64,000 nt of DNA from Vermamoeba vermiformis (taxonomy: Eukaryota): assembly GCA_045837725.1 (NCBI GenBank), contig JBEWZL010000137.1, forward strand, positions 62,001 to 126,000. Direction: 5' to 3'. How positions within the stretch are numbered: the stretch's first letter is position 1; every line of letters begins with the position of its first letter. Shown here one piece after another: positions 2,694 to 57,338 of this stretch. A program made the translations under genes and the position numbers. Under the pieces are notes generated by a model, which searched no databases, was not told the DNA's origin, and saw only the letters and a program-made list of their open reading frames with translations.

Positions 2694-4308
2694 TCACTTG
2701 CTGGGCCAGGCAATAAGTGTGGCAAAGTAGTCCTCATAAGTCTCAGCGCGGCGAATGCACTGCCAGGTGCCATCAACTGTCAACAACAATTCTGCTGATC
2801 TCAGCTTGCCGTTGTAGTTGAATCCCATCGAGTGTCCTATTTCCATATTTGGTTATATTTGCACCTCGGCAACCAAAAAAACACGTACCATGTGCGCCGG
2901 TGTCGTGGATAACTGCAATGTCATTCACGCTCAGTGCGGGCAGTGCACGTGACACAGCAAATTTGTCGTTGTTTTCGCACAGTGAGCCAGTGACATCGTA
3001 CTCGTGATCGAGCGGCAGGTGTGACTTGCCTAATATGGTAATGTGATGATACGCGCCATACATGCCAGGGCGCATCAAGTAAGCCATGCAGGCATCGAGT
3101 CCCGCGTAGTGCTTGTAGCTGTGTTTGAGATGCATGACACGTGACACCAGACAGCCCGCAGGACCTGTCACAAATCTCCCGCACTCGAGAGCTACTGTCA
3201 CGTGCGGCAGACCACGTGCTACAATCCACTGCTCGTACTCGGCTCGAATGCCCTGCGAGATTGCGTTGAGATCGAGGTTCGTGTCAGACGGTCTGTACGG
3301 AATTCCAAATCCACCTCCGAGATTGACAATCTCAAATGCAATCTCGAGATCACGTGACAGTTCACTGACGAGCGAGAAGAGCATGCGCGCAGTGTCGACA
3401 AAGTACGTCGGTGTGAGCTCATTCGATGCGATCATGGTGTGCAAACCAAATCTGCAAAGATGATTGACTGTGAGACACGTGTCAGATGCAGCACTTTGCG
3501 TGACATACCGTTTGACACCTTTTGACTTGAGCGCACTGTAGGCCTCGCGGAGTTGAGCACGTGTCATGCCAAACTTAGCTTCGACAGGATTGCCAATAAT
3601 GGCATTGCCCACGCGTTCAGGGCCAGGATTGAAGCGGAGACAAACGAGCTCTAAAAATAGCGTTAGGTGTCATTTGCCTAATATGGGAATTGTTTACCGG
3701 GGAGTCCAGCTGTTCGTTCCAAGAATTCAATGTGGCTGCCATAAAGGTTAGTATCGGAGTTCCAAATAAGGAAATTTCGTACCCCAAGTCATCGAGATTA
3801 ATGATCGCATGTAAATCACGTGCTTTGACGAATTCTTCCGCGGGGGTATCGTTCGAAGTGAATATCACGTGGTCACCTCGTATTCCCAGCCTCTCGCATA
3901 TGAGTAATTCCGCTGCATGGCGTCAGTACCACACACGTACACCATATTTCCTAATTAGGCTATCTTACCCATCGAGCTGCAATCGGCGCCAAGCCCTTCT
4001 TCGTGCAGTGCGCGAATGATGTGCGGGTTAGGCAGTGCCTGGCATGAATCAATGACCGTCACATGGCTACTATGCGTCCGTTACATACTTTGACGGCGTA
4101 ATATTCGCGGAATTTAGGCGCCCAAGAAAATGCTTGGATCAGATCGCGTGCGGTTTGTCGGACGAGAGCTTCATTCTGATGAAAGGGCATCAAAATATGA
4201 ATCGTATTTTCGTGGTAATATTCGCCATACGTAGATGTGAAAAGGTGTGGGATAGAGTTCAACGGCTTGTCGGATCTGCTCTTCAGTGAACGGCAATGCC
4301 TTGCTCAT
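2694..4308 (-). CDS. lysA: Diaminopimelate decarboxylase
   Basis: YPTPFHIY, YYAVKA (PLP lysine), FTSNDTP, NLGGGFGIPY, ECGRF, GSLCENNDKF, GAHG/HSMGFNYNGKLR across several short introns. Confidence 0.93.
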
Positions 4309-4452
4309 CGTACTAGATTTTAAATGATATTGTAATAAATCTAGTGTTGGATACGGGCACTGTTATTGTGTTAAGATCGCGAGAATGTTATTTTTACATT
4401 GACACGCACTCGGTGCGACACAACACAGCTTCAGTAAAGGGCAATCACTCAC

Positions 4453-5537
4453 ATGAGATTTATCAAGCCATATTATATTATCAACATTTGCATTATTGCC
4501 AGCTATTTTGTATGGCGAGCAGAGCAGATCCAGCGACAGGGACTGGATTTTATTACCGAGAGCAAGGTAATTAATTATTTGTAACATCAATCAATTTGTA
4601 TTTAATACGAATATTACACGATCTGACTGCAGCCTACAGGAAGGGTCACTGCTTATCTCGCTGCTGCTCATCACAGTCCTCAAAGTACGACGCGCGCAGT
4701 CGATCGAGTCAGCGCTGAGCACGCTCTTCTTGTACTTCAAGTTCTTCGTGCTCATTGTCGCACTCGTGCATCGCCTCTATGGACTCGCTGCGGGCTATTT
4801 TGCGATCTACTTTGGTACGCACTGCACAAGAGCATCGACGAATATCAACGAGTACTAATGGCTATTATTTAGTGCAGTTTGTGCTCTTTCCTCAACCCTT
4901 TTACGACGGGCCTCAACGCATTGAAGAACTGAATCCAACGACTCTGACCGCTGCTCTCACCGATCCGAATACGTATGTGGTACTTGGGATGTGAGTTGTA
5001 GTATGTCAATTAACGTGCTGCATTAGGACGTGGCTCATCAATTTTTATGCTCGGTGGTCACCTCATTGCGTCGATCTAGCACCTGTGTTTGCAGAACTTT
5101 CGCTCAAGTATGTCTTACACTACGATGCACATTGTACGATCATATGTCATAATGCGCGATGTTTAGGTACACCACTCCTCACTTCAAGTTTGGTCGAGTG
5201 GATGTGGGCCGCTACACGCAAGTAGCGCAACAATTCAACATTTCCCTCAGTGTACGTTTAAGTGGAAATATATAGCCATAGAGCAATGCTAATAACAAGA
5301 ACGCTAGGGCACGACAAAACAGTTGCCTACCCTGATCCAATTCCGAGCTGGCAGTGAATACAAACGATTGCCGCAATTGATGGGGAGTGTAGTGGCACCT
5401 GCCTCATTTAGAAGCGTATGTCTTAATGCAGCACTATAACATCTTATAACTGATACAATAACTGTTTGTAGAGGGATGTAGTGGAGCACTTCCGTCTGGA
5501 TGTTGAACGTAATACTCCAATTAAACATACTGGATGA
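4453..5537 (+). CDS. TMX2: Thioredoxin-related transmembrane protein 2-like
   Basis: Hydrophobic N-terminal exons (PYYIINI), PQPFYDGP, WLINFYARWSPHCVDLAPVFAELSLKY (SxxC), FKFGRVDVGRY, KQLPTLI. Confidence 0.85.
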
Positions 5538-6004
5538 GTGAATCATTGCCACCATTTGTTGTCGAGTGACAGTATTGCTTTTTGTCGCTATACAAAGCAT
5601 GGAGTCCCAATATAACCCGAGTCCACTTAGTGAAGTATTTGTACTGACCGACGAGTGGATGTGCCGAAAGATAAATTCAGTTGTACAATACTTCAAGTGC
5701 GACTGTATTGTCGTAAAAGCATTAAATGTACTATATAATACGCCTATATACTTCGAGTACAGATTTGCTGGTGAGTCCATCAACAACCTCCGCTTGAGTA
5801 TTTCGCCGGACTGCAGTTCAGCAGCTAGGCCGAGTAACGGACCACCGAGCCCTCATCACTCGTCAATGCATCAGTGCGCACCATTCAGTGCTGCGAGTCA
5901 CGTGCCGAGTGAAGTGCAGTGCGGTGAGTTCAGCCGTCACGTGCGCAGTGTCACTCGATAACAAAAAACACGCTGCAGTTGACATTAACATTAGCATTAA
6001 CACC

Positions 6005-7436
6005 ATGACACACCTAGGAGCACCGAGTGATCTATTGTTAGGATTCGATCACTTAGAGTTCTGGGTTGGGAACGCATTCCAAACAGCCAACTATCTGATC
6101 ACCAGATTCGGCTTCAAACACATTGCATACCGCGGACTAGAGACTGGTAGTAGAGACCTGGTGACGCATGTCGTCAATCAAGGCCAAGTATGTATTATGA
6201 CACGTTTTGAGACCCGCAAAAGGGCGGATCCAACGGAGCAAATTTAATTAATAATTCAGAAATTATCGGACTATTAATGTTGTATTTGTTGACCTTCAGA
6301 TATCTCATTATTATTGAAGATATTTATTTTTGTTCTTTTACCGTTAAATTTCAGCGCAGATCTACCTCTGCACGACTTATTTGTTTCTGACGGTAAATAC
6401 TCGCCCCAAATCACATCTTATTCACAACTACTACTACCACCTTACTAACGCCCTTCAGATTAACATTGCCTGCACCTCAGCGCTGTACCCGCAGCACGCA
6501 GCACACAGCACATTCCTCGCGCAACACGGCGATGCAGTGCGCGTGATTGCCTTCACCGTGCTCGACTGTCGCGCTGTGTTTGCACGTGCTCGCGAACATG
6601 GGGCACGTGTCATTCGTGAACCGAGCGAGTCGCGCGATGAATTCGGCACGGTGGTCACGGCAGAAATAGCCACATTTGGCGATGTCATTCACCGCTTTGT
6701 GGAGCGCAAAGACTACACAGGGCCCTTCTTGCCTGGTCACGTGGCCTCAGAGGACCACAACGATCCTTTGCAACAATTTACACCCTGTCCTGGCCTGCAC
6801 ACCTTCGATCACGTGGTGGGCAATCAACACGAGGGCGAATTGAATTCTTGGGTCACGTGGTACAATCACGTGCTGCACTTGCACACGCTGAGCGAGTACA
6901 CCGTCAACACGGGCGAGTCCTCGCTGCGCACGGTGATCGTGTCGAGTGCGAATGAAGCGATCAAAATGCCGCTGATTGAGCCGCTGCAGAATGTGAAGAA
7001 GAGTCAGAACCAGGAGTACGTCGACTTCAATGGCGGGGCTGGCGTGCAGCACATTGCATTCCACACCACGGACATTATACATGCAGTCACTCAGCTCCGC
7101 GCACGAGGGGTCAGATTTCAAGAGGTACCGCCGCAGTACTACAGCTATATTCGTCGCAAATTAGAGAACTCGCGCGTGGTGTTGAAAGAAGATCTGCAGC
7201 GCTTGGAAGAGTTGAAGATCTTGATCGACTTTGACGAGCACAGCACAGACCCCGAGCCCGGCTATTTGTTGCAGATATTCACGCACCTCATTCAGGACAG
7301 GCCGACAGTGTTCTTCGAGTTGATACAGCGCCACAAGCACGAGGGCTTTGGCGAGGGCAACATCAAAGCGCTGTTCGAGTGCGTGGAGCGCGAACAAGAG
7401 CGGCGCGGCAATCTCACTGCAGACACGCGCGAATAG
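6005..7436 (+). CDS. HPD: 4-hydroxyphenylpyruvate dioxygenase
   Basis: FDHLEFWVGNA, DHVVGN, GAGVQHIA, GYLLQIFT, RPTVFFELIQR, GFGEGNIKALF; one intron ~6188-6459. Confidence 0.97.
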
Positions 7437-7715
7437 CTGCAGTCACCTTTGTAAATAGTCATCCGAATAAATTCAGACCTGGTACGGCATGTACCGCTTT
7501 GTTTTCTACACGACATTCGCGGATTTGGAAAAGAAAATCAGAATGTTTGCCTTTTTAGGAAAGTATCGCAGACTTGCGCCTGTTGATTGTAACATATCAC
7601 TTGCATTTGTTTGATCGCCTTTGGCGTTTTTAATTATTCATTCGCAAATTTACATCGGGTTGGTTATATTTACATGTTTCAGACAAAAATAAATAAGGGA
7701 AAATTGGATCTGTTG

Positions 7716-8131
7716 TTAGCACGAGCAAGAAGCGATGAGCAAGACCATGAAGCACAGCAGAATAAAGCCGAGAATGTCAGCAGTCAAATCAAATCCTCTG
7801 GGAGTAGTGCGGGGTTTTTGATAGAACCGCAGACCCGTGGCAGGAGTGACATCTAAAGTGGCTTGTTTCAGACTGCGAGTGTTGCCGCTCAATCTCTGGT
7901 ATTTGTCTTCAGCGCGCTCAGCAAGGTCTTTCGTTTGCACCACCTCTCGTTCAATTTCCTCACCATTGAATGATTCTGAAATTCGCTTATTAGTTCATGA
8001 TCAGCAGTTTTATAACGTATGAGGGATGATTAATTACCTTTTTGATAGTTGTTGTAGACCACCATTGCACTAACAGCGAACATAACAACTAAACTGAAGA
8101 TGAAAAACAACTTGGCTCTGGCTTGTGACAT
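7716..8131 (-). CDS. Small two-exon membrane protein of unknown function
   Basis: MSQARANLFFIFSLVVMFAVSAMVVYNNYQK, a GT-AG intron, then an ORF ending in hydrophobic ILGFILLCFMVLLIASCSC. Confidence 0.55.
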
Positions 8132-9043
8132 TTTGCAGTAGATGTGCTTTTGTTTTTGTAATTTAATCGATCGACTTTAATAAGGTCGTGTTGTATTGAC
8201 TCAAACTTTTATGTTGGATAAATAGATGTTTGTTCGCGATTTGGTTTTGTACTTTTTTTCAGACACAAGAATCAATGCGAATTTATGGTGAATTTCATGA
8301 ATAATTTGGGCAAAGAACGAGGTGATTCGCAGAACGAGCAAAGAAGACAAAATAAAAAACAGTAGCCGTAAATATCGTGGAAAATTGTACGATTAGAGCT
8401 TAATTTGTGCTGTAAATGTACAGCGGTTTTGAGACCTGAAGTAGTAGATGCCGATCTGATATCAGAACACGCAACGAGCCGACTATATTGCAAACCCAAA
8501 CAGATAAGAGTACTTACGAGCATACAGTCAAGCAGGTTACTGTTCATCTGACTCTCTTCTGAATAGTCGTCTTCAAAATTGCAACATTTAACTCTCCAAT
8601 CAATGCAATAACACCACTAAATTATGGCACAAACAATACTATTAATTTTAATATTTTTTGCTAGGTGTTACGGCACAACGGTTGGAGTTGACTGCGTGAT
8701 ATTTTGATCAAAATTCTACTTACCTTGCGACAGCCGTATTCCATTATCGCATATTATATATAACCACTACGAGCAACTAAATAATAGTTGAATATAGTTT
8801 TATGCATCTTTAGATCTTTGTCTCTCAGCATCAGATCCACTATGTTGCCGCCATTCGCTCAAGCGCACTGAGTCAAAGAAATTTGAATATTTAGCATAAT
8901 ATTGGTAACGTCTAATAGACTGCCTAGTCTTTGGTTGTCGTCAGTGAACTTGTTGTGTGGCTTTAATGGAGTAAACTATTTTTTTTTTTGTATTCCCTTC
9001 ACTCGATCCAGTGACAACAAAAGGCTAGCGTTGAAACACACAA

Positions 9044-11284
9044 ATGTCGAGTTTATTTTCTTCCTTCATGTCTGGTGGTACATCCACTAACAAAAGTGCG
9101 TCAGCCACGCCAACAAACCCAACCAGCAATGATGACGATAATTTGCCGCAAGTCGCTATTCCTGCTGCCAAAACAGGTATGTATTATATTGTATTCATTT
9201 AGGGTTCGCCATTGTTCTTTCTGAATTAACGAAAAATTCCAACGATCAAATCCAACAAAATCAATTGTAATACGCAAATAATCTAATTAATCGGCGCATA
9301 TTATTAGGACAACAAAGGAATGAAGGTTGGTTGAAAAAAGGAGGCATTTTGACGTATAAGCCTCGTTATTTTATTGAATACGACGGCAAGATCTATTACA
9401 AACGAAAGAAGGAAGACCAAAAGGCACGAGAGTACTTCCCTATTAACAAAATTATTGCTATTCAAATCACTAAAGGTAATAGCTCATAATTTTCCGATCG
9501 GGAACTTTCATAAAGACGCGTCGACTGACAATTCATGCTAATCACTGCAGAACTTGAACTGGAGTTCACTTTGACCGTAGTGGGCACTGGTGGTGACAAG
9601 CTGATTTACATGCAAGCGCTCAACCGCGAGGACTTTGATCGCTGGGTCAAGATCTTCGTCGAGCGTACTGGTCTGCCAGTGTTTGACGCCAACCAACAAG
9701 TGATGCCCAAGTACAAGAGCAAGGGTAAGGGTGTCGCTCATGCGAGTCAGTGCAACAGTCGCGACTCTGCTTTCGCCGTCAACTGAGGGGGCGTAGCTCC
9801 AACGGTAGAGCGGCGGATTCCAGGTCCGATGGTTGCGTGTTCGAATCACGTCGCCCTCATTACTTTTTTATTTTTTCTTTTGCCTTACCACTCTATTACA
9901 TCAGGTGCTCGTGCCTACACCAATGTCGGTGACGATGAAAGCAAGTCAGACTTTGCCAAGACACATCCTGGCGTGAAAGTCGTACCCGGAGCTGCACCCG
10001 AAGTTCAACGCACCGTGCAGCGCGTCGTCACCCCTAGCCGCACTGCCACTGCTGCCAAGCCTGCAAGTGAGAGCAATTCATTGGCCTCATCCACCGCTGA
10101 ACAACCACGCGACTTGCTCGTGGATCTGTCTGATCCCACCCCGACCTCACAACCTGCGCACCCAGTCAGCGCACCGAGCATGTTGCCCGTGGACGATGAG
10201 GTCGCGAAAGGTCTGCTCGAGCGCAATCAGAGTCTCTTGTCGCAGCTCGATCAACAGTTCAATCTCAACGAGGCCTTACAACAGCGCATCTCAGATCTGA
10301 TCCAACAGCTGCACCAACAAGTGCTGATCAATCAGAACGCGCAACAACAGCTCGTGGACCTGAGCACCGCTCTCAACGAGAAGAACAGCGCGGTCGAGGT
10401 ACGTGTGACTTGGTGTTCATCTATTCGCGGCACAGACTCACAGTTATTCTTAGGCACTGCAACGACAATTGAGCGAGGGTGGTGAATCCGTAAGTGATTT
10501 CTAAATATGGTAATATCAATACTAGATATTGACACGTGTCAAATAGTCAGCCAAATTGAACGAAGTGACGGAACAACTCGCACATCAGACCCAAGTGAAT
10601 GCAAATCTGCAAACACAAGTGACGCACTTGACCAATCAGCTCAACGAGCGATTGCACATGAGCCAAGAGCGACACTCGCAGGTAGATGAGCTCGAGAACA
10701 AGATCCGTCAGCTCAACGAAGACCTCGCGGCCAGTCAACTGCGTGTCACTGAGTTGACAGGTCAGCTGATGAATGAACAAGAGCGTGCAAAACAATTGGA
10801 GAGCACCGTCGAAGAACTCAAGTCGCGCGTGACGAGCGAGACCGCCAAAGAGACCGAGCTGAGTCACGCCAACGAGGAGTGGCAGCACAAGTACGAAGAG
10901 GAGGTCAAACAGCGCGCTGAACTCGAGCAACGCTTGGCACAACTGCAAACACAGCGCGATGAACTGCAAACGACTGAAGCCTCGCACAGCCAAGAGTGGC
11001 AACAAGAGCGCAGTTCACTGAACGAGACCGTGCACCAGCTCAAAGAGGAAGCGAGCAAGATGAGCGAGGAGATTGAACAGCTGCGCAGCACGAGCGAGGA
11101 CACGGAGAAACAGAATCAAATTCTCAACGAGAACGTGACAGCACTGAACAGCGTGATCATCAAGTTGACGTCGACCAATCAGCAGCTGTTGACGGAGCTC
11201 AATGCCTACAAACAGAAAGTGCCACCATCCCCGCAGAAACAAGTGCAACCTCCGCGCACTCCCTCCGCTGAGGACCGACTGTAA
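9044..11284 (+). CDS. PH-domain plus long coiled-coil protein
   Basis: EGWLKKGGILTYKPRYF...IYYKR...IYMQALNREDFDRWVKIF (PH fold), followed by Q/E-rich heptad exons from ~10200 to 11200. Confidence 0.85.
9787..9859 (+). tRNA. trnW-CCA: tRNA-Trp(CCA), nested in an intron (9725-9904) of the PH/coiled-coil gene
   Basis: Cloverleaf: acceptor GGGGGCG/CGCCCTC, D arm GCTC/GAGC, anticodon loop TT-CCA-GG, T arm GCGTG-TTCGAAT-CACGT, discriminator A, downstream T-run (Pol III terminator). Confidence 0.95.
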
Positions 11285-11362
11285 TTGCCTTATTTGGACA
11301 TTGCATCAAGTGTTAATAAATCAGATTTACAATTCGGCTGTACATTGAAATGTTGACACGTG

Positions 11363-14300
11363 TCAAACTGTGTGCTGGACAGAGGTGTCAGCGAGTGACG
11401 CGAGTGACACGCACCACTGCTGCGAGTCCATAAATAGCAACCACGCGCGCCAGTGCGGATCGTGCATCAGAGTGTCTAATTGCCTTATTAGTAAGTGCTT
11501 GCTAATAAAAGTCACTGCTGTCCTTACCGCGATGTCCGAGCACAATTAATCCGCTCCGAGCACGTGTCAGAGCGACATTCAGTCTGCGCCAGTCATTCAA
11601 GAACCCCACGCGGTGCTCGGGATTGCTCCGAACAGCGGAAAAAATGATGATTTCTTTTTCACGGCCCTGGTGAACGATCAGCAATTTGTTTCAGTGAATG
11701 AGATATTCCGCACCTGAAATCCATCGACACTGGCGACATTAAGGCCACCCTCGACGAGTGTTTGACTGTTCTCGCCCTCGTCTGCCAGGGTCACATCGCC
11801 CTCGTCTGCCAGGGTCACATCGCCCTCGCTGTCACGTGCCGCGTTGTTGTTCGACTTGCGCGGAGAAATAACTAATTTGGCACGGAACTGCGTGAAGAAT
11901 TTGTCGCGGGAGATCAAATCGGAGATATGCCGCACTTGCCCGCTGTACGGTGTAATTATTCCGATGTCACTCGTTGACAGCTGTGGCGCGCTATTTTTGG
12001 CGGTGGTGGCAGTGTCGAGCACCATCTCAAATCCCGAGTCATCGTCAAAATAGGTAATGTCCGTGCCAGTCACGTGCTCTGGTTGACGCGCGACAGGTGT
12101 CAGCAGACGGCGGAGAATTGTCATGACATATTTGGCTATGAATTGATCAGTTGAGTGTGACACGTGTCATTTGCTCACCTTCTTCGCGGTTCATGAACGA
12201 CTTTCCCAATCCGACATTGCCAGCCTCTTCCGCGCCCAGTGGCACATCGATGAACACCACCGGATGTTGTTCCGCACCACTGACTGGCCAGGGAAATCCC
12301 GCGGGCAGTGGTCGATCACCGCGCTGCACGGCATTGAAAATTTTCCCTTTATAGAAATACTGCAAAGATTGATGAGTGTCAGTGCCACCGACAGCTGCGA
12401 CATACCATAGAAGGAAAGTGCGCGATATCAGGGTGCATGCGGTACTGATACTGCAGCAGATTGGGCGAGATGAGTGGCACGTGGCTCGGTGTCAGCGGAT
12501 CATCGAGCTGCAGCGGAGATCAGTACAGTGCAGTGCTGGCACAGTGCCACTTACCTGAATCACGTGACTGGTGTGGCCTGCCAGACGTTGAAAGGGTGAG
12601 ATCGTCAGCACAGCGTCATTGCCTTTTATGGAAGTCGGAGGCAGTTGATAGTGATCGCCGAGCAGCACGAGCTGTTTGATGTCACGTGATCGGACCAGCG
12701 GAATTAATAGCGCGGGCTCGGAGCACTGACTGGCCTCGTCCATGAGCACCACGTGGAATTTGACGTCTATTTTTAGCTTCAGTTAAGTGCCTGAATAGCC
12801 ATATTTGGTCACTCTTACCACGTGACAGCAGTTCGTAGTCACCGACCCCAACCACTGTGCCAACAATGACCTCGGCACGTGACAGTATATCTCGCTGTAT
12901 CTCGCGCATAATCTGCCGCAGCTCACGACGTTTTTCCGCGAGTGACTTGTCAACTTCAGCGTTCACTGAATCTGCGGAGATACAATCACGTGAGCACGAG
13001 TCACATTCATGAACAGGACTTACTGTCGCGTTGTTTCACTGAACGGCGCTGTGAGGTCTCCAGCCGCGTGATCTCTTGCGTAATCTCCTCCAATCTCGGA
13101 TATCTCCGATCACGTGTCATTTGCACCTCCAAGGAGACAGCACGCAATTCTTCGCGTATTTTCACTGAACGACCGACCCGCACAGCGCGCACTCCGAGCT
13201 TGAGCAGTCCCTCGAGCAGATTGTCCACTGCCACATTAGTAAATGCTGTCGCGAGCAGGGGCAGCACACTGCTACTATTTTTAGCGCGCGATCGTTGCGC
13301 GAGGAGTGTCATCACCTTCATCAAGTGCACGGCGGTGTAGGTCTTGCCGGTGCCTAAATCGAGCAGTTAGTGGCGTGGTGACAGGTGTCAAACAGCGATC
13401 AGCACGGTACCAGGCGGGCCTTGAATGAGTGACAGGCGTCGATTGATCACGTGACTGATCACACTGCGCTGCGAGTCATTCAGCTGCCACTCCCTCCACT
13501 CTGGAATCACGTGATCAATGTCGCGTGGACTGTTCAGTGAAACAGTGCCCCACAGCCCTGGTTGTTCCGCTGCGAGACGAGTGATCTCGGCGGGAGATTG
13601 CAGGTCCATGAGCAGCGCTTGAAACACAGAACTGTACGGCACGGTGTCTTCGGACCACGTGTTGCGTACTGTCACGTGATTGGTCAGCTTTTGGCCTGTG
13701 AATAGCTGCAAACAAGTCAATATTGCCATATTTAGTAATTCACAGCCAAACATACTTGCAAAGCATACGACATGCGGTCAAAGGTGACAGTACTCGGCCC
13801 ACGATCGATGCGCCATCCACGTGATGTGTTGCTATTATTGGCTGCAGTGTACGGACCAGTCGATTGTTCCGCTGTCACGTGCTCTTCTTCGAGCAGGGTG
13901 CGCAGTGAAGTCACGTGCACACCACCAGAGGTATACTGCACCCAAATATGGCGTATACCTCGCTCGACAACAACACCCTCCCACTGATACTTGTTGCCCT
14001 GGTCAGTGCTATTTTTAGCCGCACTGAGTGGCACGTGACCGGTGCGCGTGACGAGCACTGCATCGCCGTGATTGAAGCGGTGATTGAGCGGGTACGGCGC
14101 ACGTGACTGATACTGAAATTTCACGAGCAGAGTGGGCACGTGATTGAGATCGGTCACGTGCTGATCGGTCAGGGTGTAGCCTTCATGAACGAGACGCGTC
14201 AGGGGCCAGGTCTGGATGCGCTCTCGGACCTGACTCAACTCAGCGGCGCACTCGTCGTTGATGGCACGCTGCCACTTGTCGTAATAGGCCTAATATGATA

Positions 14301-14664
14301 TAATGGACATTAGTGCAAGAACTGTCTGCAACTTTTCTCAGAATTTACGTAGTGGTGCTGGGCTAGATAATACGCCCTTAATATTGCGGTAATAGCGCAG
14401 TAAATAATACTAATAATAAGGCACTAATATTATGAAAGGCAGAGTGCTGTACCTTGCGGCCCTTGGATTCACTGCTGCTGATCACTACTGGCAGAGTTAA
14501 TTCATTGCCCCTGTGTTGCTACATAAATAATACCATATTAATTATGAAATTAAATGACAAAAACAGTGGTGCGATGGATTTACCTGCTGTGGAGGAGCGA
14601 GTGAGTTGATGCGCGGCACTTTGCGATCCCTATTGTTGTGATCATCGGTTGCCTTTCTCTTCAT
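11363..14664 (-). CDS. Upf1/Dna2/IGHMBP2-like superfamily 1 helicase
   Basis: [92 protein letters not shown]. Confidence 0.95.
11772..11828. repeat. Perfect 24-bp tandem repeat (2.4 copies) inside a helicase exon
   Basis: tcgccctcgtctgccagggtcaca x2 plus a partial copy; encodes [18 protein letters not shown]. Confidence 0.9.
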
Positions 14665-38714: not shown

Positions 38715-38782
38715 TGTACATAATCCTTGTAAATAGCACCAATAATGTTCAATACTCGAGTCAGTAAGATTTATTAAGCCGC

Positions 38783-40414: not shown

Positions 40415-40588
40415 CTTAGTGCTAGTAGGATGGATAATCGATTGTTTTGCAGGACATTTTTAGCGGTCAGCTGTCAGAAAATATCTGGAATTGTATCACA
40501 TGACCGGTCCCAATTATTATTATTTAGGCTAAGTCAATGTGAATCAGCTGATAAATTCGACGAAATGATGATCGGTGCCACAACGGAG

Positions 40589-43500
40589 CTACTGATTGGC
40601 CTCGAAGAATTGGCGCAGTGCTGGCAAACTATTCTCGACCGAGGAGTACGTCTTCAAGCAGCCGCGGATCCACTTGGACAATTTGTTCGCGCAGTCCTCG
40701 CGTGCATAGCGCTCATCGAGCAGTATAATCGCGCCGTAGTCTCGTATGTGTCGAATGCACCGACCAATGGCCTGATTGACTGCACGATAGGCCTGCAACG
40801 CGTACCAGCTAATGTGAAGTGTTACTCGCTGATGCTATATTTAGCCGCGGTGTATATATATATAGCCTACCTATTGCCATCCAGCAGTCCTAAGCTTTGC
40901 TTGCGTTGCGTGTTGAATTCTTTTTTCAGTACAATCTTCAGATCTTTCCTAAAAAGGAGTTCAAAATCAGAGTCAAATTTGCTTTGATCCGGATCGGACA
41001 GTGCTACATACACTAGCGGGAATGGAATGCCAATCACTATCACTGCGCGTGCATTGTGATCGCTGAAATCGAGCCCTTCACTCACTTTGCCGCGACACAC
41101 CGCGCAGAACAGCGCTAAAAATAGTTGAGAACTCATATCAATGTACTAATTAGGCAATACCTCCTTGCGCGCTCTCAGTGGCGGAATAATACGTTGACAT
41201 CACACCTGCAAAGTTCTCTTCTGCGGACCTCGGCTCTGTCACTACAATTAGCGCACACTAAATTATTGCAAAGACACGACGCACCAATCGCCACGGTTTT
41301 GCGACATTGCACTTGGTGCCACAGGCCAGTGTTGGTCCAGCGCTCAATCATCTTGTCCATCAGACCGTAGGACGGGAAGAAGCACAGCACACCGTGAGGG
41401 ACCACTTGACAGTACTGCAGCAATGCAGCTCCGATGGCATCTATTACCATATTAGGACATGCAAGCACTCCTCACAGTAGTACCTTGATATTCAAATGAG
41501 ACCGAATTGGTGTACACGCTGTTGAACTTGACTGTCTTGGGGGCCAGAGCACCGACCCAGATCTGACACGTGTCAATCACCGAGCGACAAGTACTGTGAC
41601 ACTTACCTGTTTGGTCGTGTTGATCACGTGATTGGTTTGCACGTTGTGAGGAAACTTCGTGGCAAGTTCACCGGCAAACGAGTCCATTGGAGACAAGGTG
41701 CCAGATGTCACAATGATGGTTCGAGCTGTCAAACGTGTCACATATTGAGCAGCACTAACACCTATTTATATGTCCCTTACCAACACCCGCGATCTGTGTG
41801 AATGCCACTGCGGGGTTGAGACACCACAGGCCAATGGAATAGCTCCACACGCGACGTCCTGTCATTGTTAATAGTTGAACGAATTGATGCAATGCTTACC
41901 ATTTTTGGGCACGAGTGTCTTTTGAATCACCACTTTGTAGTCGTGTTGAAAGCGATAGTTCTGCGTCGTCAAATAGTGCGCTATTCGGAACAGATGTGAG
42001 AGGAGAATTTCATTTTTCTGCGAAAACAATCGCTCGTCCGACTCGTTGTTCACTCCCAGACCGTGATTGAGCTTGCCGATCAGCCCTGTGATACTTTCAG
42101 CTGTCACTCCGTAGTCCGCGAGCAGTGTCACTAATTCAGCCCCGCCCCATCTGTATTGCATCAGCGACCAATAACACCACACTAGCGCACTTACACATTG
42201 GAGTTGGTTTCAAAGTCTGTCGGCTTCAAATTGCCAATAGCTTTTCGAACCCAAGAAAGCAAGCCATCGATAATCTGCTTGAACGGTTATAACGTCGAAT
42301 ATCAGTGAGGTACTTACGGTGACAAATGGTCCAAAGTGTTCGGCCAGCGGTGTCATATTGACCATGTGTAACTCGTCTGTCAGTCCTAGCTGCTGTGTCA
42401 GTACAATTCATTTGACACGTGTCACACATCACTCACCAACTAAGTCCTCTAAAGTGAAGTCCATCGTCGTTGCCTCGCGTGCTGCGTCTTCAATGTTGCT
42501 AAAAATAGATTATTACACTCGCTGCCTGTGCCACTAACACTTACTGGGCCTCATCGAAAATGACCACTGCGCCTTGCAGTTCAATCTTGAATGACTCGCG
42601 AATACCCGGGTCTAAGAGATAATTGTACGGACACAACACGAGATCAGCTTTGTACGAGAGTGTCTTGGCCCCAAAGTACGGACAAGCTGTCAACGGTGTC
42701 AGTCAAACATGTCAAAATGACACGTGTCAACTTCACTCACCTTTATTGTCCTGACCGAGCAGCACAATGTCCTCGAGATCCCACGGCTCAGTCTTCAAGT
42801 CCTCGCGCTCAGTCAGCACGGACTTTCGGTTCTTGTACGTGCAGCCTTGAGGCGTGTCCACCAACTTGCGGCTGTGTGAACGTTAGATATGGAGCGCTGT
42901 CACGTGTCAACATGTCACTTGCCAGTCTGTGTCTCGAGTGCGTGAGAGACTGATGGTCGGGTGCACGCATGTGTGATCACGTGATCCAATCACTGCCATT
43001 TTAGGACGGTAAGGAGTCTTGCGCAGTTCAGCGACCACTTTTTTGACCTGCGCGTGCGTGCGTGATGCGTAATAGATCTTCGGTGCTGGAGGCCGCGGTG
43101 TTTGCGACCCTTCATCGTCACTGTCGCCGTCACGTGACTGTTTCTTCTTTGGATCTCGCGAACCCTTTCCTGTTTTGGAAGGCTCCTTCTTGACACTTGC
43201 CTTGATCGCAGACTTGCTATCCACCTTGCGCTTCTTTGCACTGCTGTCGTCAGAGCAGTGGTCGAGACTACGCTTCTTGTTGGGCGTGACGAACACGCGC
43301 TTGCTGGACTGAAAATCATCGTCCAACTCACTCAGATCTAATGTCACTCGATTGCTGTCGCTGGAGTGGGTCATTGTATTCTTGTTACTATTGTCATCTT
43401 CAATAGTGATCACTGAGGGATGTGGATCTGGTTTGATTTCGATTTTGATTTCGACTTGCTTAGCTTCCTGCTTGACCTCCTGAGCCAATGATTGCTTGTT

Positions 43501-43883
43501 TTCATGTTCTGATTTCACAGGAGTGCTTGTGCTATTACTGCAAGTATGCGAAGCACCGTCCTCCTGTTTAACGGCGTGGTTGGGATCGGCATTATTGTTG
43601 AAATCGTTCTGCCATTGTAATGCAGCGCACAACAGAGCCAATGTTTTTCCTGTGCCTGTAGGTGCCTCAAGCAGCGCATTTTCTGATCTAATACGAAGGG
43701 ATTGAATCAGACGCCGAAGAATTATTTGAATATTGGATTCGATCCAAAATTAATTAATTAGTACCTCTTCAGGGCCGTTAATAATTTGGACATTAGAGCC
43801 AGCTGAGGTCCGTAACATTTATACGGAAACATGACACGATGCCCACAAACCCAAGTGACATGATTCGTCTCTGGATCACTCAT
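40589..43883 (-). CDS. FANCJ/BRIP1-like (XPD/Rad3 family) Fe-S DNA helicase
   Basis: [113 protein letters not shown]. Confidence 0.95.
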
Positions 43884-44145
43884 TTCTCAAGATGCGAATC
43901 TACGGTGCTGTGGTGTGGTGTTGCAATAGTCTGAGTTCACTTAAAAATCATGGTCAAATCCTCTTAAGAAATTCTACGAAATGAAGCTTGCGCTGCTCGT
44001 GCTCGTTTTGTGCGGCGGAAATGTGACCGTTACAAAATTCAAAACTAATCAATTGATTGACCGAGATTGCAGAGCACAGAACGCGAGCAATATCATCCGT
44101 GTTTGTGAACACGTGCAGGATTGTAGCTCTAGGTATTTCTGTGCA

Positions 44146-45445
44146 ATGAAGCGCGAAGGTGACAGACTGTACGCCTCATCGCCTGAAAAGAAGTTCAAAC
44201 TTCATTCTGGCAGTCCTAAACACACTACGTACGAGAAATTTAGTATATTGGAATATATTAAACTAACAAATGATGATTAGAGCGTGTTCGCCTTTACAGT
44301 TTAAGTGTCCAACCTTTTCGGTCGATGGCGATCCAACAACCTTTATGGCACCCGAGCATTGGCTGCTGATATTGTCGTACCTCTTGCCTGTTGAGATATG
44401 CCAATCAGTGGTGGGCATTAACAAATTCATGGCTGGTCTGGCACAGAGTGATTATCTCGTAAGTAGCTAGATTTACTTCCATTCCGTGCTCCCCGTAGTT
44501 GATATTGAATTACAGTGGCGACCATTGACCTATCGGATGTACACAGACTGGTGCACCAATAGACGAGGTGAACTGCTACGACCACGCCTGTGCACCTCGT
44601 GGAAACAAATCTACCGCGACATCACTGCCCTCGCCACTGCACCGCGCGATATGACCGGCAAGTGTTTTGACCACGTGATTAATGTACGCTAACAGTTTAT
44701 TAGCATTTTGCCCGTTCTGTGGAGATACGTTGCCTAAGTACGGAGCTGACAAGTGCGGATTTGTTGCTGCACCTCAACGTATGTAGTGCATGATACGCAC
44801 AGGGTCATAATGACGAGCACCTATTGATATTGTAATATAATAATAGGCTGTGCGTTCTGTCAAATCAAGCTAACTATCCCAGGACAGCAATGCACTACGT
44901 GTCAGCAGCTCAGTTGTGACACGTGTCAAATCACGTGCCGCTGTTGCACGACACCAAGGTACAGTCCACAATCACGTGTCAGTCAGTCACGTGCTAACAG
45001 TCCTCGCTAGCTGTCCTCAGTGTGCTGTGAAGACGCGCGAATGTCAGCACCATGACACCTGTCACGTCATCTCCACGCTGCATTGCAATGCGTGCACCCG
45101 AGCATGTGACAGGTGTGCAATGATCACGTGCCTCACTGCGCAGAAGTGGTGCAAAGGTTGTTTTGACTTTTTTGGGTGTGAACCTTGTCTGGGCGTTCAT
45201 GAACAGGACTGCATTCAGTAAGTCTTTGCAACTATTTCACAGCACGTGTCACTCATTTAGCACTCAGCGGCGTGTCATCTGATGACTCGAATGCTGCCTT
45301 TGACAGGTGTCACATCTGTCGCACGCACACCTCACTCGACAGCACCACGTGTCACAAGTGTCACTACACGACCTGCGCGGTGTGTCTGATCACGTGCTCG
45401 CAGTGCGGCACGAGTTGTTCGGAGTGCTGCCAGTGCCTCGCGTGA
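44146..45445 (+). CDS. F-box protein with Cys-rich (CxxC repeat) C-terminus
   Basis: MAPEHWLLILSYLLPVEICQSVVGINK..AQSDYL/WRPL (F-box), SWKQIY, then many CxxC pairs. Confidence 0.75.
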
Positions 45446-45656
45446 TGATTGTAATTTAGTGTGTTATATAGAGACCTTATTTGCAGTTGTAACTAATTCA
45501 CTGAACCAGTCTTTGCAGTTGTACATCGCTTAGTCATAAATAACAATATTTACTAATTTGGTACCAAGCCCCCATGACAATTCTTTGGAATCTTTCAACC
45601 AGGGCACGTTTAAATCAATCAGGGCTGCACGCACAATTATCTGCAACAATTTGAGC

Positions 45657-47405
45657 ATGGAACACCACGACGGAGGTCATCAACCAGGGCAAGTAGATCC
45701 GCATCTGCCCTCGTTCGTGCAAGTAGTCCCTCCTCAGCCCGTACAGTTCTCGCAGCCCATGCCTGTCCCCGCGGTTGATCAGGGTTACAATCGCGGTCAG
45801 GTCTCGACTTACAATTTTTCCAATGTAGTAGGTGAGTAGTATAATTAATCGCAAGCTCAAATTTCAAATCAAAAATAATTGTTGAAATATTTTTTTTGAG
45901 GATCAGCAGAAATGTTATTCCATCGTTAGAACAAAATCGAGTTATTACTATGTAAAGAGTATTAATCACCTGAATTTTAGAAAGAAGAAATGCGCCAGTT
46001 CCACCACCTGTAGCATTATTTACTGGATCAAGCAGTTCAGCGCAGTACACGTTAAATTCAGTGCTCGCAGAGGATTCTGGTCCTAAGGTAAATATACAAA
46101 CTATCATATCCTAAATTCATTACTTCTGCTGACGTAAGGACCAGATCCATTTTTGAGATCCTGCCCTCTTTGCTTACTAACAGTACCTTATTGCAGCACA
46201 GTCTATGGCAGCGCTATCTCCGCGTAGTCAGTGTGGACAATCAGGCACGCAAGTTATCAATCTTCATTGGCTTTATGGCCGTTGTATTCATATTCAAACT
46301 GCACGTATCACACGGTGCCGAATCCATGGGTAACTCACTGCACACACCACACACTATAAGCACATTACACTAACACCGTGTAGCACTACTGGCCAGTGCC
46401 TATTACACGCTATTCACGCTGCTCACACTGGCCACTAGTCTCGTCGCACTCGTCGCCAACAAACAGCGCTCCACACTCGCATTCTCGTACGGGTACGTCA
46501 CGTGACAGGTGTCAAATGTGTCACGACACTGACAGCTCTGCACAGCTATGACAGGTACGAGTTGCTGATGGGCTTTGCTAGCGGCACACTGCTCGTATTC
46601 GTGTCGCTGTACGTCTTGTTTGAGGGCTTTGAACACATCCTCGAGCCCCACGAAGTCAACACGTATGTACACTTGTATATAGTGGCCCTATTGACACTCA
46701 TCTCGGCTATTAATAGTAACAAGCTCATGCTCACTTCCTTATTTGGTATGGTGGCACACGTGCTGGCAGTGGTGCTGTTCAACGATCAAATCAAGCTGCG
46801 CACAGAACTCGCAACACATTCGCGCATGAAGAGCGTTGAAGGACTAGTGCGCCAATTAGTGACCGATGTGATGCCAGATCTGCTCTTGTTTGTCACTTCG
46901 CTCATATTCTACGTGCAGTAAGTTCTGTCGCACATAGATACCATTATCTAACTCAAATCAGACCAATCTACTGGCTGGAGAGTCTGATTGGCTGGGTGAT
47001 TGCACTGCACGCCATGTGGACTGTCGTTCCGTACTGCATCGAGTCGGGACGCATTCTAATTCAATCAGTGCCGCAGTCTATTCAATACATCCTCGAAGAC
47101 ACAATTCGTGACGTAAGTATCAGTCACCACAATGACTACAGTAATAACCTCGTGTGCAGGCCACAACAGTCGACGGCGTGTTGGAGGTGCGTCGCAAGAA
47201 GTCACACTTTTGGACCTTTGCGCCTGGCGTGTTCGTCGGCACACTGCACGTGCGTGTCAAACAAGACGCAGATGTGCAACTAGTGCTGCAACACTTGAGC
47301 AAGCTGTTCAGTCCGATCATTCAACACCTGACCATTCAAGTGCAAAAAGATGATTGGGGCCATGGGCACAATCACGATCAGCCCGCACACACCGTGGCAC
47401 ATTAG
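45657..47405 (+). CDS. Cation diffusion facilitator, ZnT6/SLC30A6-like
   Basis: FSYGYDRYELL, HFWTFAPGVFVGTLHVRVKQDAD, LTIQVQKDDW; TM2 lacks HxxxD, as in ZnT6. Confidence 0.88.
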
Positions 47406-47492
47406 AACACTAGTGCTCGTATAGTATCATGGCACTCCTTTTGTGATATAAAACAACCTATTTACAACGCATATGGTGCTACTAAATACAAG

Positions 47493-49370
47493 TTAGAACC
47501 AGTGATATTTCTTGAACAAAATGATCACGATGGCACTGTACGCCGCCATGCCTCCCAAAATGACGTAAAACCACGTTAAGTCCGTCGCATCAGGTTTGCC
47601 CGGTACCTACAGATACATGTTAGCCATGCATTATTCTACTCAACTAGGTGTGACGCGTACATCGACGTTCATTCCCCACAGACCAGTGATGAACGTGAGT
47701 GGCAGCATGATCGTTGTCATGGCACCAAATTTCTTCATGACACTGTCCATACGATTCGAGGAATAGGCGACTTCAATGTCCACTCTGTTGTGCGACTTGT
47801 TAGGAGATGCATATGAATCATTTCAGTTTATCCCTACCTCGCCAAGTAAGTCGAGTTGAGATTAGACAGGGTTTCTTTAGTGGCTTCAATGTCTTCCAAC
47901 ATACTGCGCACTGATTAGCATTCAAATAAACTATTATTCCGCTCACTTACGCCTGAATGTGATCCAACACGTCACGCAGATAGATCTTAGTGTTGCGATT
48001 CAATGCTCCAAACACTGCATCATGTTAGACACGTCCTAATTAACAGTGATGACTTTTTAGCGTACCTCTGTGTTTGTGCAGCGGATCTAACTTCTCCAAT
48101 GTGGGACTATCTTCGTGCTGTATGCCTTGCTGTTGTTGTTGTGACTCGTTGTGTTTGCCTTCAGTCTCGTCTTCAGTCAAACTGCTCTTGATCATCAGTG
48201 ACACCATCACATCTTTTTTCTTCAACAGTTGTGCACGCAAGAATGAAATTCTTTTACGAGCCAGACCGATGCGTCTATAATAATAGACATTGTTAATCAC
48301 TGATAGTTGTTCTATTATTTTTCACACGTACTTCAACACATCGTTCTGTTCATGAGCAGTCAAAATGAGCACTAAATCATCGAGCGAATCGACCTCCATT
48401 GCAATCTATCGGACATTAGCAAGGACTATATACTCCCATTAGTATACACCTATCGCTTACATGTTGTACAAAACTGAAGAACATATCGACAATTGCGTCC
48501 AATATGGCGTACATGATCCAATCAGCTGTTCGCTTCATTCCTTCCTAAAATATTATATTGGACATTAATATATTTGCCAGCACTGGCACTCAACCAAGTA
48601 CACACCTTGAGCATGCGCATACGATTGAGCACTTGATCGATGCACTTGATGGGTCCCTGGTGCACGCAGATCAAGAAGTTCTTGAACACAATCAAGTTGA
48701 CATTGACCTGTTGCAGTTCATTGGTCCCTGGTGGCACGTGCACCTCCGTCATCACCACGAATCGATAGTTGTCGAAGATTTCGTTCTTTTCACGTGTCTC
48801 CGCTGAGCTGAAGCAATCCTCCACTGTCAATGGATGCAAATCAAATACACGGCCAATCTCTCGCAGAGCAGCAGCAGTCGGGAACTGTACATCCACAAAA
48901 AATGTCTGCTTAGGATTGTCTTTGATATTTTTGCTGAGTGCTAACAACTGTTGGAGCTCGATTTGTTGTACTTTGCGACCATTCGATTCGATTAATATGA
49001 TTTTCTGTTGGCAAGGAATACGAGAGTTAAATACGTATGAACAGCACCAACACGATCCAGATCGGAAAAGTAAATTTCCGATTATTACGATTTAAATGAA
49101 TTTAGATAAAATTTTTGATTTTACCTCGTTGCGCTTTTCTTCGAGTTCATCATATTTAGCAAAATCGACGACGAGAGGATACTCTTTGACTTTTTTACTT
49201 TTTTTCTCTGGGGGAGGAGATGTGATGCCGTTGTTGTTGCTCTTTTGTCCATCTTCTCCAATATTATCAAGCCCTTATTATTTTATTTAATTAAATCTTT
49301 TTACAGCACACATTTTGATTTTCATACCGTCATCCAAGTTATCGATCGTGGCTTGTTCCATCTCATTCAT
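47493..49370 (-). CDS. CorA-family Mg2+ transporter (Alr1/Mnr2-like), paralogue 1
   Basis: FDLHPLTVEDC, REKNEIFDNY, DWIMYAILDAIVD, IYLRDVLDH, LPLTFITGLWGMNVDVPG. Confidence 0.93.
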
Positions 49371-49655
49371 CTTGGCTAGCTCATTAATGCACAAATAAAT
49401 TGAATGCAATCGGTGCTGTGGTTAGTCGAATTTTGCAAATAGTACAGAATAGAATTCCGTTAGGTGTAAAAATCGTTGGTTTTCGTTCCCGAACTGCCGC
49501 CAAAAATCATAAAAATATTTAAATTAATTCTTGCACCACAGCTCGCGTCGTGCGTATTTTTAAGCACGACGTCCATTTGTTATTAACTTCGAGTTGCATT
49601 GAGTGCAGTGCGTACTTTAATTATTCGATTAATAATCGAAAATAATTCAAATAGC

Positions 49656-51548
49656 ATGGGTAGTACTACGAAAAGGTTAGTACGGACAATAAAATAACAA
49701 AATATTAATGTACATTCTCAGATTATTTATTGCTTTGTCGATCGTGATCTCGGTGCTAGGCAGTCTATTCTTAATGAACGAGTGGTTGCCAGAGAACCAG
49801 TTCCGAGCGCTACGCAATGTAATAGACTACAACAAGAATTCAATTCGCCTCGCGGCTTTAGAATTTCGAGATCGCGTTGCAGCACTGCGGCTCACTTACG
49901 AAAATTGGTCTGCAGAGGTCAATTCGCACAGTGATTTATTAGCGGGGCTCATAACACGACTGAGACAATTGAAGAGCAGGCCATGGCTATTCAAATATCA
50001 ATCAGATGTGGAGGAGAGTTACTTTTTAACACTGCTTCAACGCCAAACACATCCGCACTCAGAAGTGTACAAGCGCGCTATCAATGGCACCACCCTAGTG
50101 CACGCTGTTATCGAGGCCAGTTCAGCTGCGAGTCACCATCCTTATGCACAGCTATTCAAATTTGTACTGGAACGCACCGAGACTGCTTGTCAAATGTAGG
50201 TCCATATCACGCATCAATGAAGTTTCCTAATTTGGTTATAGGCCCGACAACAGACAGTACAGCATCATGCACAAACTCATTGCACAAAACAACTTACCAC
50301 TGACGGAGATTGCTTTGACACTTGACGGCTGCAAAGTCTTATGTGAGTGTAGCGTTCAGAACCTTTTGCAGATCTAATACCAAATATAGTAAGTGCCAAA
50401 GATAGCAGCAACAAAACACCGCTCGACTATCTCACGCAATCGTCGATGGCCAAGCTGCTCGTACAACATCATGCGCGTGTTGATCAACAGCTGATCGAGT
50501 CGTGGTTGACACGCGTCCTCGCCAATGACACGTGGTCAGTGACACTTGAAGCGGGCAAGATTGTAGAGGTGCTGCTGGGCCCTGTCAACTCAGATCTAGC
50601 GATTGAATCTGTTAGTCAAGCGTTCAATCAATTGCTTGGCTACAACAAGGCTGTTGTTCCTCGCCTGGATACGACGTAAGCAGTGCCAGCCAAATCTTTC
50701 ACGAATCTAACCTTTTGACAGCAAACACACACTGCTGGGTCAATTAGGTTCGGCAGTCGCTGGTTCGTCGCTCGTGTCATTTCAGTACGTGAAACTCGAT
50801 CGTGAGAACACTTTGTTACCGAAAAAGGAAATACCACTGAACATGCGACCACGTGAACGGCAAGTGATCGTAATGACTGTGAGTGGCTCCTCGTCTTTGC
50901 AATCCAAACAGAAATTTAGATCTGGTCTCGTTGTCGCAGTGCAATCTGTAAGTTATGCCCTGCTGTCAAATAACAATCAATAATCTATATTTAGAACGCC
51001 GATTCATTTGACTTGAAATTCAGCGAAAGTGTCAACTTGGTACACATGCTTGCAAATGATCAGCAAGTAATTCGACAGCAAGACACGATACTCGGTGCTT
51101 ATCCACACGTGACACTCACCGCTGAGTCCAGTGCTTTTGATCACGTGACTGTCACTGCCCTCGTGACGTGTAACAACGCATTTGTTGCGTGTAAAGGTGA
51201 CTTCAGTGTAGAATTTGTGCCATTTGCAGAGGTAAGGTACCTGTCTAATGTTACCTATTATTGACATATAGTTAGCACCTCTCTAACGTCACCGAGCTCA
51301 CATGGACTGACTTCGCTTGGCATCCGTTCTCATTGTTCCGCTTGAGCGCAATAACTTGGTTGCCTTTTATGGAAATAGTGCCTAAGACGTCATCCGGTGT
51401 CGTTCAACTCGCGCGAGTATTGCCGATATTTGTGTCACTGTTTGGCTTTGTTACAGTGGGCTACATGTGGGCTGTGTACTGGATCTGCTACTTGTTCGGC
51501 GGTGTTTTATTGCTTACACCGCTAGTGTTGCTAAGGAGACTAATATAA
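49656..51548 (+). CDS. Multi-exon membrane protein of unknown function (N-terminal TM, ankyrin-like segments, C-terminal TMs)
   Basis: RLFIALSIVISVLGSLFL; GTTLVHAVI and KTPLDY ankyrin-like bits; hydrophobic last exon; GT-AG introns. Confidence 0.6.

Positions 51549-53987: not shown

Positions 53988-57338
<3,351 letters not shown>

Follow-up and report, generated by a model that had tools for sequence, protein, structure and literature searches.

The DNA analysed here (the window) is a stretch of 64,000 nucleotides of the Vermamoeba vermiformis genome (contig C137, positions 62001-126000), whose genes carry many copies of two MADS-type motifs, CCW6GG (CArG) and CTAW4TAG (MEF2), and of the E-box CACGTG. 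At 17800..20259 (no strand) lies a gene-free transposon nest, a candidate centromere core by its repeat content, its lack of genes and its CpG observed/expected ratio of 0.41. It is surrounded by a motif-loaded, GC-rich and gene-dense domain (1..51550, no strand), defined by motif profile and by G+C at third codon positions (GC3), which extends left beyond the window to about C137:40 kb and reaches about 35 kb to each side of the core. The MADS motif is interpreted below as one component of a larger organisation around probable centromeres; the interpretation offered by a first-pass annotation of this DNA is supported in part. The genome searched comprised 43.3 Mb in 309 contigs and has short introns. 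Gene models came from a purpose-built, self-trained gene finder run on 828 kb (the window and 80 further stretches). Seeded with 13 RNA-supported introns, it recovered four of four additional read skips and returned 348 genes and 1708 introns with a median length of 57 nt. RNA reads were taken from run X22 over window positions 11001-31000 and showed 1169 differences, 40 of them listed. X22 bears the same species label and is about 90% identical to this genome, pointing to a cryptic lineage.

On the left of the core, lysA (diaminopimelate decarboxylase, 2694..4308, minus strand) carries six CArG sites (2843, 3677, 3762 and 3950 intronic, 3029 and 3593 exonic), one MEF2 site at an acceptor (3651) and nine E-boxes. 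All six sites that the first-pass annotation attributed to this gene are present; 3029 alone lies in an exon, the other five in introns. The SF1 helicase gene (11363..14664, minus strand) has CArG sites at 12622, 12799 and 13942, MEF2 sites at 12767 (acceptor), 13275 and 14009 (both encoding AKNS) and 23 E-boxes, and reaches 13.6 motifs/kb past 500 bp. Three AKNS peptides in this helicase had been ascribed to the motif; two are encoded by CTAAAAATAG, but the third (near 11990) comes from the hybrid CCAAAAATAG. A protein kinase gene, recognised by its own sequence motifs (14812..16302, minus strand, RNA-supported joints), contains an RNA-supported GC-AG intron (15474-15527, minus strand) that ends within CCTAATTAG/G, its acceptor being part of a perfect CCTAATTAGG. 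At 15695-15700 the E-box is missing from X22 through three substitutions (HV versus AL).

The core is adjoined by a RING-like gene (16597..17680, plus strand; joints from RNA, stop from sequence), with intronic CArG sites at 17299 and 17444 and an acceptor MEF2 site at 17585, and by a Peptidase_S74 gene (20260..22618, minus strand), presumably MYRF-like, with four MADS sites and 15 E-boxes. PROPPIN (22950..24377, minus strand), 3-4 kb from the core, has no MADS or E-box site and is an internal negative; its RNA depth is the highest in 11001-31000. MON2 (24766..30030, plus strand) holds five CArG sites, 11 MEF2 sites and 40 E-boxes and was used for the conservation test. The SH2-domain gene (30157..35415, minus strand) has an intronic CArG site at 33520 and MEF2 sites at 33731, 33827 and 34286 (exonic) and 34824 (intronic), and the DEAD_2 helicase gene (40589..43883, minus strand) has four CArG and three MEF2 sites, two of the latter at acceptors, as well as intronic TALE dimers. 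At the domain edge, the alanyl-tRNA synthetase gene (53988..57338, plus strand) is a second negative with no MADS or E-box site. Named homologues of its product include Balamuthia, Physarum and dictyostelids at 46-50% identity, the best-scoring named one being a plant record; with the SH2 and Peptidase_S74 genes, they point to a probable amoebozoan.

The excess of both motifs is real, and the earlier observation is confirmed. A motif was found at 31 of the 31 positions previously listed, at most 1 nt away. In total the window contains 31 CCW6GG and 28 CTAW4TAG sites, compared with 1.8-3.3 (maximum 7) and 0.5-2.2 (maximum 5) in five whole-window shuffling designs that preserved 2- to 5-mers (40 shuffles each). 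Neither the reversed motifs (CArG 4, MEF2 0) nor the off-by-one spacings (CArG W5 5 and W7 1; MEF2 W3 2 and W5 2) were enriched in the window. Genome-wide, CArG sites number 9040 versus 1887 for the reversed control and MEF2 sites 4865 versus 1515, and the density in the window is 2.3 and 3.9 times the genome average, respectively. The CArG sites of the window comprise 13 exonic, 12 intron-interior, three acceptor, one donor and two intergenic sites, and the MEF2 sites 17 exonic, nine acceptor and two intron-interior ones. The first-pass annotation had staked its claim on an excess beyond overlap with branch points and acceptors, and such an excess is seen. With splice overlaps removed, the exons retain 13 CArG sites versus 1.8 expected and 17 MEF2 sites versus 0.4 under 300 synonymous shuffles. 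Intron interiors of the window hold 12 CArG sites versus 0.5, while for MEF2 the corresponding figure (2 versus 0.4) is not significant. Most intronic MEF2 sites share the acceptor TAG, and they do so beyond the expectation from acceptor composition.

The MADS-type identity of the motifs proposed earlier holds up by sequence. CCW6GG is the SRF/Mcm1 CArG consensus, with a central AT and TT..AA flanks, and the MEF2 consensus is K-CTA-W4-TAG-M. The spacing is exact and both core and flanks fit: CArG sites have a CCWWATWWGG core with TT..AA flanks (central A-T 87%, flank T 69/67%; 47 sites), and MEF2 sites read K-CTAW4TAG-M (flank G/T 82%; 35 sites). Cognate genes are also encoded, with two SRF-type and two MEF2-type loci in the genome. 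One exon per type was compared with PDB, and matched SRF (1e-17) and MCM1 (2e-13) in the first case and MEF2A (5e-31) in the second.

An unbiased word search of the same gene bodies found (G/A)TCACGTGA(C/T), TGACACGTGTCA, TGACAGGTGTCA and GTTCA(S)TGAAC to be enriched as well; TGACACGTGTCA and TGACAGGTGTCA are presumably of TALE-dimer type. The fifth enriched family (GTTCATGAAC / GTTCA(C/G)TGAAC) occurs, for example, at window positions 11687-11696 and in the 13170 region, and GCGGAACA and TGACACTTTGACAC-like words are enriched too. Profile searches of the genome matched HLH five times and Homeobox_KN ten times. At least five motif families act alike, and the single abundant architectural MADS protein envisaged earlier does not account for them. 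The further proposal that MADS sites work with CACGTG stands insofar as the two densities covary across genes (rho 0.45, n=48), but no fixed spacing was detected: within 0-60 bp, 74 MADS-E-box distances were observed versus 84 expected, with no peak. A fixed spacing within 60 bp was rejected, and there is no sign of a joint complex. The slight surplus seen at 80-180 bp probably stems from a null model that ignores the 5' gap described below. Intronic motifs show no clear strand bias (CCAAATAAGG, for example, occurs 10 versus 9 times), which points to binders of double-stranded DNA rather than RNA signals.

When 33 genes were picked solely by E-box density, their coding sequences contained 26 CArG sites versus 3.3 and 21 MEF2 sites versus 0.5 under synonymous shuffling. 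The encoded peptides are affected as well. In these genes HV occurs 141 times versus 59 (VH 33) and 126 of the HV are coded CACGTG, an excess partly built in by choosing on E-boxes; SRD occurs 28 times versus 4.8 and KNS ten times versus 3.0. As side observations, five of 18 factor loci (SRF, MEF2, bHLH and two TALE; C8:104 kb, C66:281 kb, C276:328 kb, C84:525 kb and C263:148 kb) are no more than 30 kb away from a core, a zone covering about 10% of the genome; the association is weak and may be due to chance. GATC-centred words (CAGATC, CGGATC) are about 2-2.4-fold enriched in introns far from cores and have an observed/expected ratio of 0.97 in promoter-distal introns near cores, where the CpG ratio is also lower.

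The nest at the centre of the domain is devoid of CArG and MEF2 sites as well as of E-boxes and TALE sites. A transposase remnant at its edge (17760..17903, plus strand) matches DDE_Tnp_4 (Pfam PF13359, E 3.3e-6) and is taken to be Harbinger/IS5-like. The chief repeat shared among cores (18322..18972, no strand) is a non-coding element of about 650 nt with terminal inverted repeats, resembling a miniature inverted-repeat transposable element. A second repeat (18975..19480, no strand) occurs at the same single loci and also on C30, C56 and C179. A 16-mer from the core gave 86 matches on 67 contigs. On 66 of these contigs all matches fall into a single cluster no longer than 3.5 kb, the exception being C243 with an extra one-mismatch match. 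One further core, on C282, came from another repeat search (40 of 83 candidates scored), and with those on C30, C56 and C179 about 70 contigs bear a core. Over 43 Mb this corresponds to about 620 kb per core, and the large contigs seen measure 561-797 kb. The cores have CpG ratios of 0.41-0.64 versus a median of 1.19 for 85 long intergenic stretches, although other low-CpG stretches exist, and matches to the DNMT family are present in the genome. For ten of 67 core matches the contig starts no more than 5 kb away, which suggests that the assembly breaks at cores. In a survey of 15 contig ends only one carried the telomere repeat, so that the contigs are unproven as whole chromosomes; this end is the start of C8, where (CCCTAA)n lies 80 kb from the C8 core.

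The cores share features of regional centromeres, being one locus per contig and gene-free, repeat-rich and CpG-poor, a sign of methylation, and on such sequence features they are, with good probability, centromeres. Other identities were considered. An RNA gene in the core was rejected, as Rfam gave no match. Base skew of genes pointing toward and away from the cores differs by at most 0.03 within 40 kb and does not flip, which, weak though the test is, gives no support to a single dominant replication origin.

The first-pass annotation had described the motifs as spread throughout. Instead, they are concentrated around the once-per-contig core and are nearly missing from the initial ~400 bp of genes. 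Paired E-boxes number 729 genome-wide versus 23 for the control. Most of the first 100 on the list belong to a single cluster of 15-55 kb on each large contig; 89 of the 100 are on core contigs and 82 of these within 40 kb of the core. On C137 the cluster is centred on the gap at 17800-20259. Pairs of MEF2 site and E-box number 94 versus 2 in the control. On core contigs 67 of 73 such pairs lie within 40 kb of the core, 32 to the left and 35 to the right, compared with a conservative null of 21.6 (maximum 40 in 200,000 draws). At the cores found later by the second repeat, three of four more pairs lie near the core by hand count, and 17 pairs are on 13 contigs with no known core. The cores later located on C3, C44, C48 and C30 fall within E-box domains mapped beforehand, and on C8, examined after its core (79-81 kb) had been located, the domain is symmetric (57-102 kb). 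In pooled data from four contigs, the density of coding MEF2 sites is 0-0.3 per 10 kb at more than 40 kb from the core and 4-6 at 5-20 kb; for coding E-boxes the respective values are 3-7 and 34-53. For acceptor-type MEF2 sites, 18 of 369 introns near cores carry one versus 0.6 expected, and 15 of 1035 far away versus 3.6.

In near-core genes the 400 bp that follow the start codon hold hardly any MADS sites (about 1 per 10 kb in exons, 4-5 in introns), whose density beyond 600 bp is much higher (8-9.5 and 34-67, respectively). Intergenic DNA is close to background. With depletion at 5' ends and between genes and no spacing to partner sites, the placement is not that of promoter or enhancer elements. 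Base composition follows a similar course. GC3 is 0.64-0.65 within 20 kb of cores versus 0.48 beyond 100 kb, and, with motifs masked, G+C at four-fold sites near cores rises from 0.54 in the 5' portions of genes to 0.72 in the distal ones, versus 0.43-0.47 far away. Genes also differ in site density. Near cores there are 0-1.7 MADS sites per 10 kb in the 11 genes above the median optimal-codon index versus 11.4 in 79 genes, and distal motifs amount to 1.1 per kb in PROPPIN versus 11-14 in the helicase, MON2 and S74 genes.

The evolution of the sites was followed in MON2 by comparison with metagenomic orthologues of 90-94% protein identity, the near-identical L087 and L088 being counted once. 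Distant homologues gave three weak matches only, of no use for residue tests. Outside motifs, 240 of 614 four-fold sites differ. Where any synonymous change would break an E-box, 10 of 66 positions differ versus 23.3 expected (P 5.5e-5), and at MADS positions motif-breaking synonymous differences number 0 of 20 versus 3.4 expected (P 0.023). This synonymous constraint agrees with the selection on the sites suggested by the annotation. Of 39 E-boxes 28 are kept, and of 16 MADS-type sites nine are identical, three have turned into another MADS-type site and four are lost. The diverged introns still hold two acceptor-overlapping MADS sites and one E-box. Eleven E-boxes are confined to the lineage of the window and one to its relative, GC3 being 0.67 versus 0.61. 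Full sites outnumber their median single-mismatch neighbour 12-fold for the E-box, more than 20-fold for MADS and 48- to 90-fold for TALE motifs. Constraint, turnover and neighbour ratios together indicate that the sites are under a weak, additive force and turn over, instead of being fixed regulatory elements.

Taken as a whole, it appears likely from these sequence patterns that several families of general-factor sites carpet the gene bodies around every small centromere, that a weak force on each site, acting through a barrier or through conversion or transmission drive, rewrites proteins, and that the same signal maps about 70 centromeres. Each chromosome would have one nest of decayed DNA transposons of 1.5-2.5 kb, probably its centromere, and genes within about 35 kb on either side would have gathered sites for the organism's own factors: SRF/Mcm1-type, MEF2-type, bHLH, TALE homeodomain and one further factor. 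No site would be a dedicated enhancer. Each would bring a small benefit, of scaled strength about 2.5-4.5 as judged from the single-mismatch ratios, and sites would turn over and settle where tolerated, first in introns, then at acceptors and at synonymous and tolerant coding positions. The likeliest benefit would be that scattered occupancy shields long, weakly transcribed genes, over the parts of their bodies distal to the promoter, from the repressive or CENP-A chromatin of the core, the sites forming a distributed barrier. The first ~400 bp would be spared either because 5' chromatin is already protective or because sites there would disrupt initiation. The 5' gap and the core have analogues in Acanthamoeba, offered as analogy only: unicellular eukaryotes including this amoeba have peaks of histone H3 lysine-4 trimethylation and N6-methyladenine of under 1 kb just past the start site (PMC12695648), and its 5-methylcytosine lies on transposons and silent genes (PMC12344493).

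That weakly selected factor occupancy protects pericentromeric gene bodies from spreading silencing or CENP-A is put forward tentatively, as an explanation that may be right. It draws support from the compartment-specific enrichment, the lack of clear strand bias, the cognate genes, the core-centred geometry, the low CpG of the cores together with the DNMT-family matches, the 5' gap, the scarcity of MADS sites in near-core genes of high optimal-codon index and the MON2 constraint. Several findings weigh against it. The rise of G+C near cores and distally, present with motifs masked, is unexplained by anti-silencing and is the opposite of yeast centromeres, which are GC-poor. The conservation test covers a single gene, MON2, in which the 11:1 asymmetry of E-boxes and the higher GC3 exclude a simple equilibrium. 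Enrichment persists in weaker form far from cores (intron-interior CArG 13 versus 3.5 in E-box-poor genes), and on C12 an E-box domain at 77-91 kb has no match to either core repeat in three repeat searches, being either an exception or the site of a diverged core. The strength of the domains is uneven, with 1.9 MADS sites per kb on C137, 2.4 on C8, 0.22 on C13 and 0 on C300 (four genes). The optimal-codon index is confounded with G+C, and the RNA-depth evidence is weak, coming from the ~90% identical lineage X22.

The same observations may be read as non-adaptive molecular drive, in which gene conversion between homologues, commonest around the core, is biased to G+C and to the factor-bound allele, and sites are purged only near promoters. 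The bound allele would be the better donor or the less often damaged one, and motifs would spread like bacterial uptake sequences. G+C and motifs do share one geometry, near the core and promoter-distal; factor families that are unrelated respond in the same way, protein sequences are bent (HV and SRD above), and the relative compared in MON2 has both lower GC3 and fewer sites. Uptake sequences likewise double their tripeptides (PMC2817400). In lysA, an H-V dipeptide occupies columns in which P and L are the residues of 93 and 97 of the 117 distant homologues, respectively, although a test of motif-forced residues over all conserved columns was suggestive but not significant (4/16 versus 17/157, p 0.11). 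This gene has six introns and its closest non-sibling homologues are prokaryotic (~60% identity), which suggests an old lateral acquisition later loaded with motifs. Against drive, convergent intergenic gaps near cores are barely enriched (11.5 versus 8.2 motifs per 10 kb, small n), distal G+C at four-fold sites is uncorrelated with motif density gene by gene (rho 0.17, p 0.23, n=53), and to our knowledge no mechanism of factor-biased conversion has been described. Biased conversion would fit the parallel G+C rise better, and the empty intergenic DNA worse, than the barrier does; on balance it is rather doubtful.

The sites could also serve the chromosome, their flanking occupancy aiding segregation, cohesion, pairing or early replication and so improving transmission. 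On this view the core might act as a pairing centre or an origin instead of as the kinetochore site, and the domain would be a spread-out analogue of Cbf1 and the centromere DNA element CDEI. A symmetric, distance-graded, once-per-contig geometry regardless of gene function would be expected on these terms; CACGTG is dominant as it is in CDEI, and well-expressed genes could simply exclude roadblocks. Such service to the chromosome is nonetheless unlikely, since the core and the nearby intergenic DNA, the cheapest places, are free of sites, strength varies about tenfold among chromosomes, and no skew flip was seen across cores, weak as that test is.

Very unlikely is a neutral trap, in which bound sites mutate less and motifs pile up at stable occupancy with neither selection nor drive. 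Divergence is lower inside motifs and the bound families all behave alike, but E-box divergence is only about 2.3-fold lower, and near equilibrium protection alone would need rates 10-90 times lower to yield the 12- to 90-fold excess of full sites. Finally, branch (CTAA) and acceptor (TAG) signals, together with codon usage or base composition, might have produced an artefact, to which the nine of 28 MEF2 and three of 31 CArG sites of the window that overlap acceptors could be ascribed. Such an origin is vanishingly improbable and ruled out by the 7- and 40-fold exonic excess under synonymous shuffling, CTRAY lying at branch distance in only 6 of 61 intron-interior CArG sites and the acceptor-type MEF2 sites near cores being themselves in excess.

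Apart from the motif families, the window contains a tandem ankyrin-like repeat gene (38783-40414, minus strand; CEWDES..AAA.GHL.CLKYAHENG) in which a short intron splits each repeat at the same position.

If correct, the barrier would represent a novel way for a compact genome to keep genes active at a distance of a few hundred bases from a centromere; conversion or transmission bias would alternatively make the domain a new eukaryotic kind of molecular drive. DNA-binding preferences would measurably shape protein sequence in a position-dependent manner, and the core repeat family would give a sequence-only map of candidate centromere coordinates in an amoebozoan genome. A 2026 centromere atlas has no representative of Amoebozoa and calls protist centromeres cryptic (10.64898/2026.09.17.752431), and in an Acanthamoeba Hi-C study centromeres could not be placed (PMC9528979). 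The organisation of motifs around probable centromeres is apparently undescribed: no account of the pattern was found in the open-access literature searched.

Individual features nevertheless have counterparts. The sites resemble SRF/Mcm1 CArG and MEF2 cis-elements in consensus, core, flanks and encoded cognate proteins, but known sites of these types lie in promoters and enhancers, whereas here they occupy gene bodies, avoid 5' ends and follow no spacing grammar. CDEI is one site inside the budding-yeast centromere, bound by Cbf1, and the pairing centres of C. elegans use dedicated motifs and proteins. Both tie factor motifs to a once-per-chromosome locus, in the former case CACGTG, but here hundreds of general-factor sites lie in genes flanking a motif-free core. 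Mcm1 acts as an insulator in yeast (PMC4551913). The DIRS-1 centromeres of Dictyostelium, also amoebozoan, form one transposon cluster per chromosome; they are telocentric retrotransposon clusters (PMC2995078), whereas the present cores are internal, of 1.5-2.5 kb, made of DNA-transposon remnants and directly flanked by genes.

Two further systems come nearer. In C. elegans, intronic periodic An/Tn clusters (PATCs) license expression in repressive chromatin, a functional precedent for the barrier, and have been proposed to protect endogenous genes; like the present sites, they are a diffuse intragenic feature that follows a repressive domain of the chromosome (PMC4947018). The A/T clusters of PATCs recur with a 10-bp period and lie in non-coding DNA, whereas here discrete, often exonic palindromic motifs of several families form a gradient of about 35 kb around a point core, and by these units the PATC pattern is absent. 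The uptake sequences of Pasteurellaceae and Neisseria are protein-recognised motifs in coding DNA whose encoded peptides are about doubled (PMC2817400), and motif-coded peptides (HV, SRD, KNS) are over-represented here too. Uptake sequences are bacterial, with a single motif in each species that occurs genome-wide and is linked to DNA uptake, unlike the present eukaryotic set of at least five motifs, which is restricted to a domain and excluded from 5' ends. Although it lacks defining features of both systems, the organisation is closest in purpose to PATCs and in protein effect to uptake sequences.

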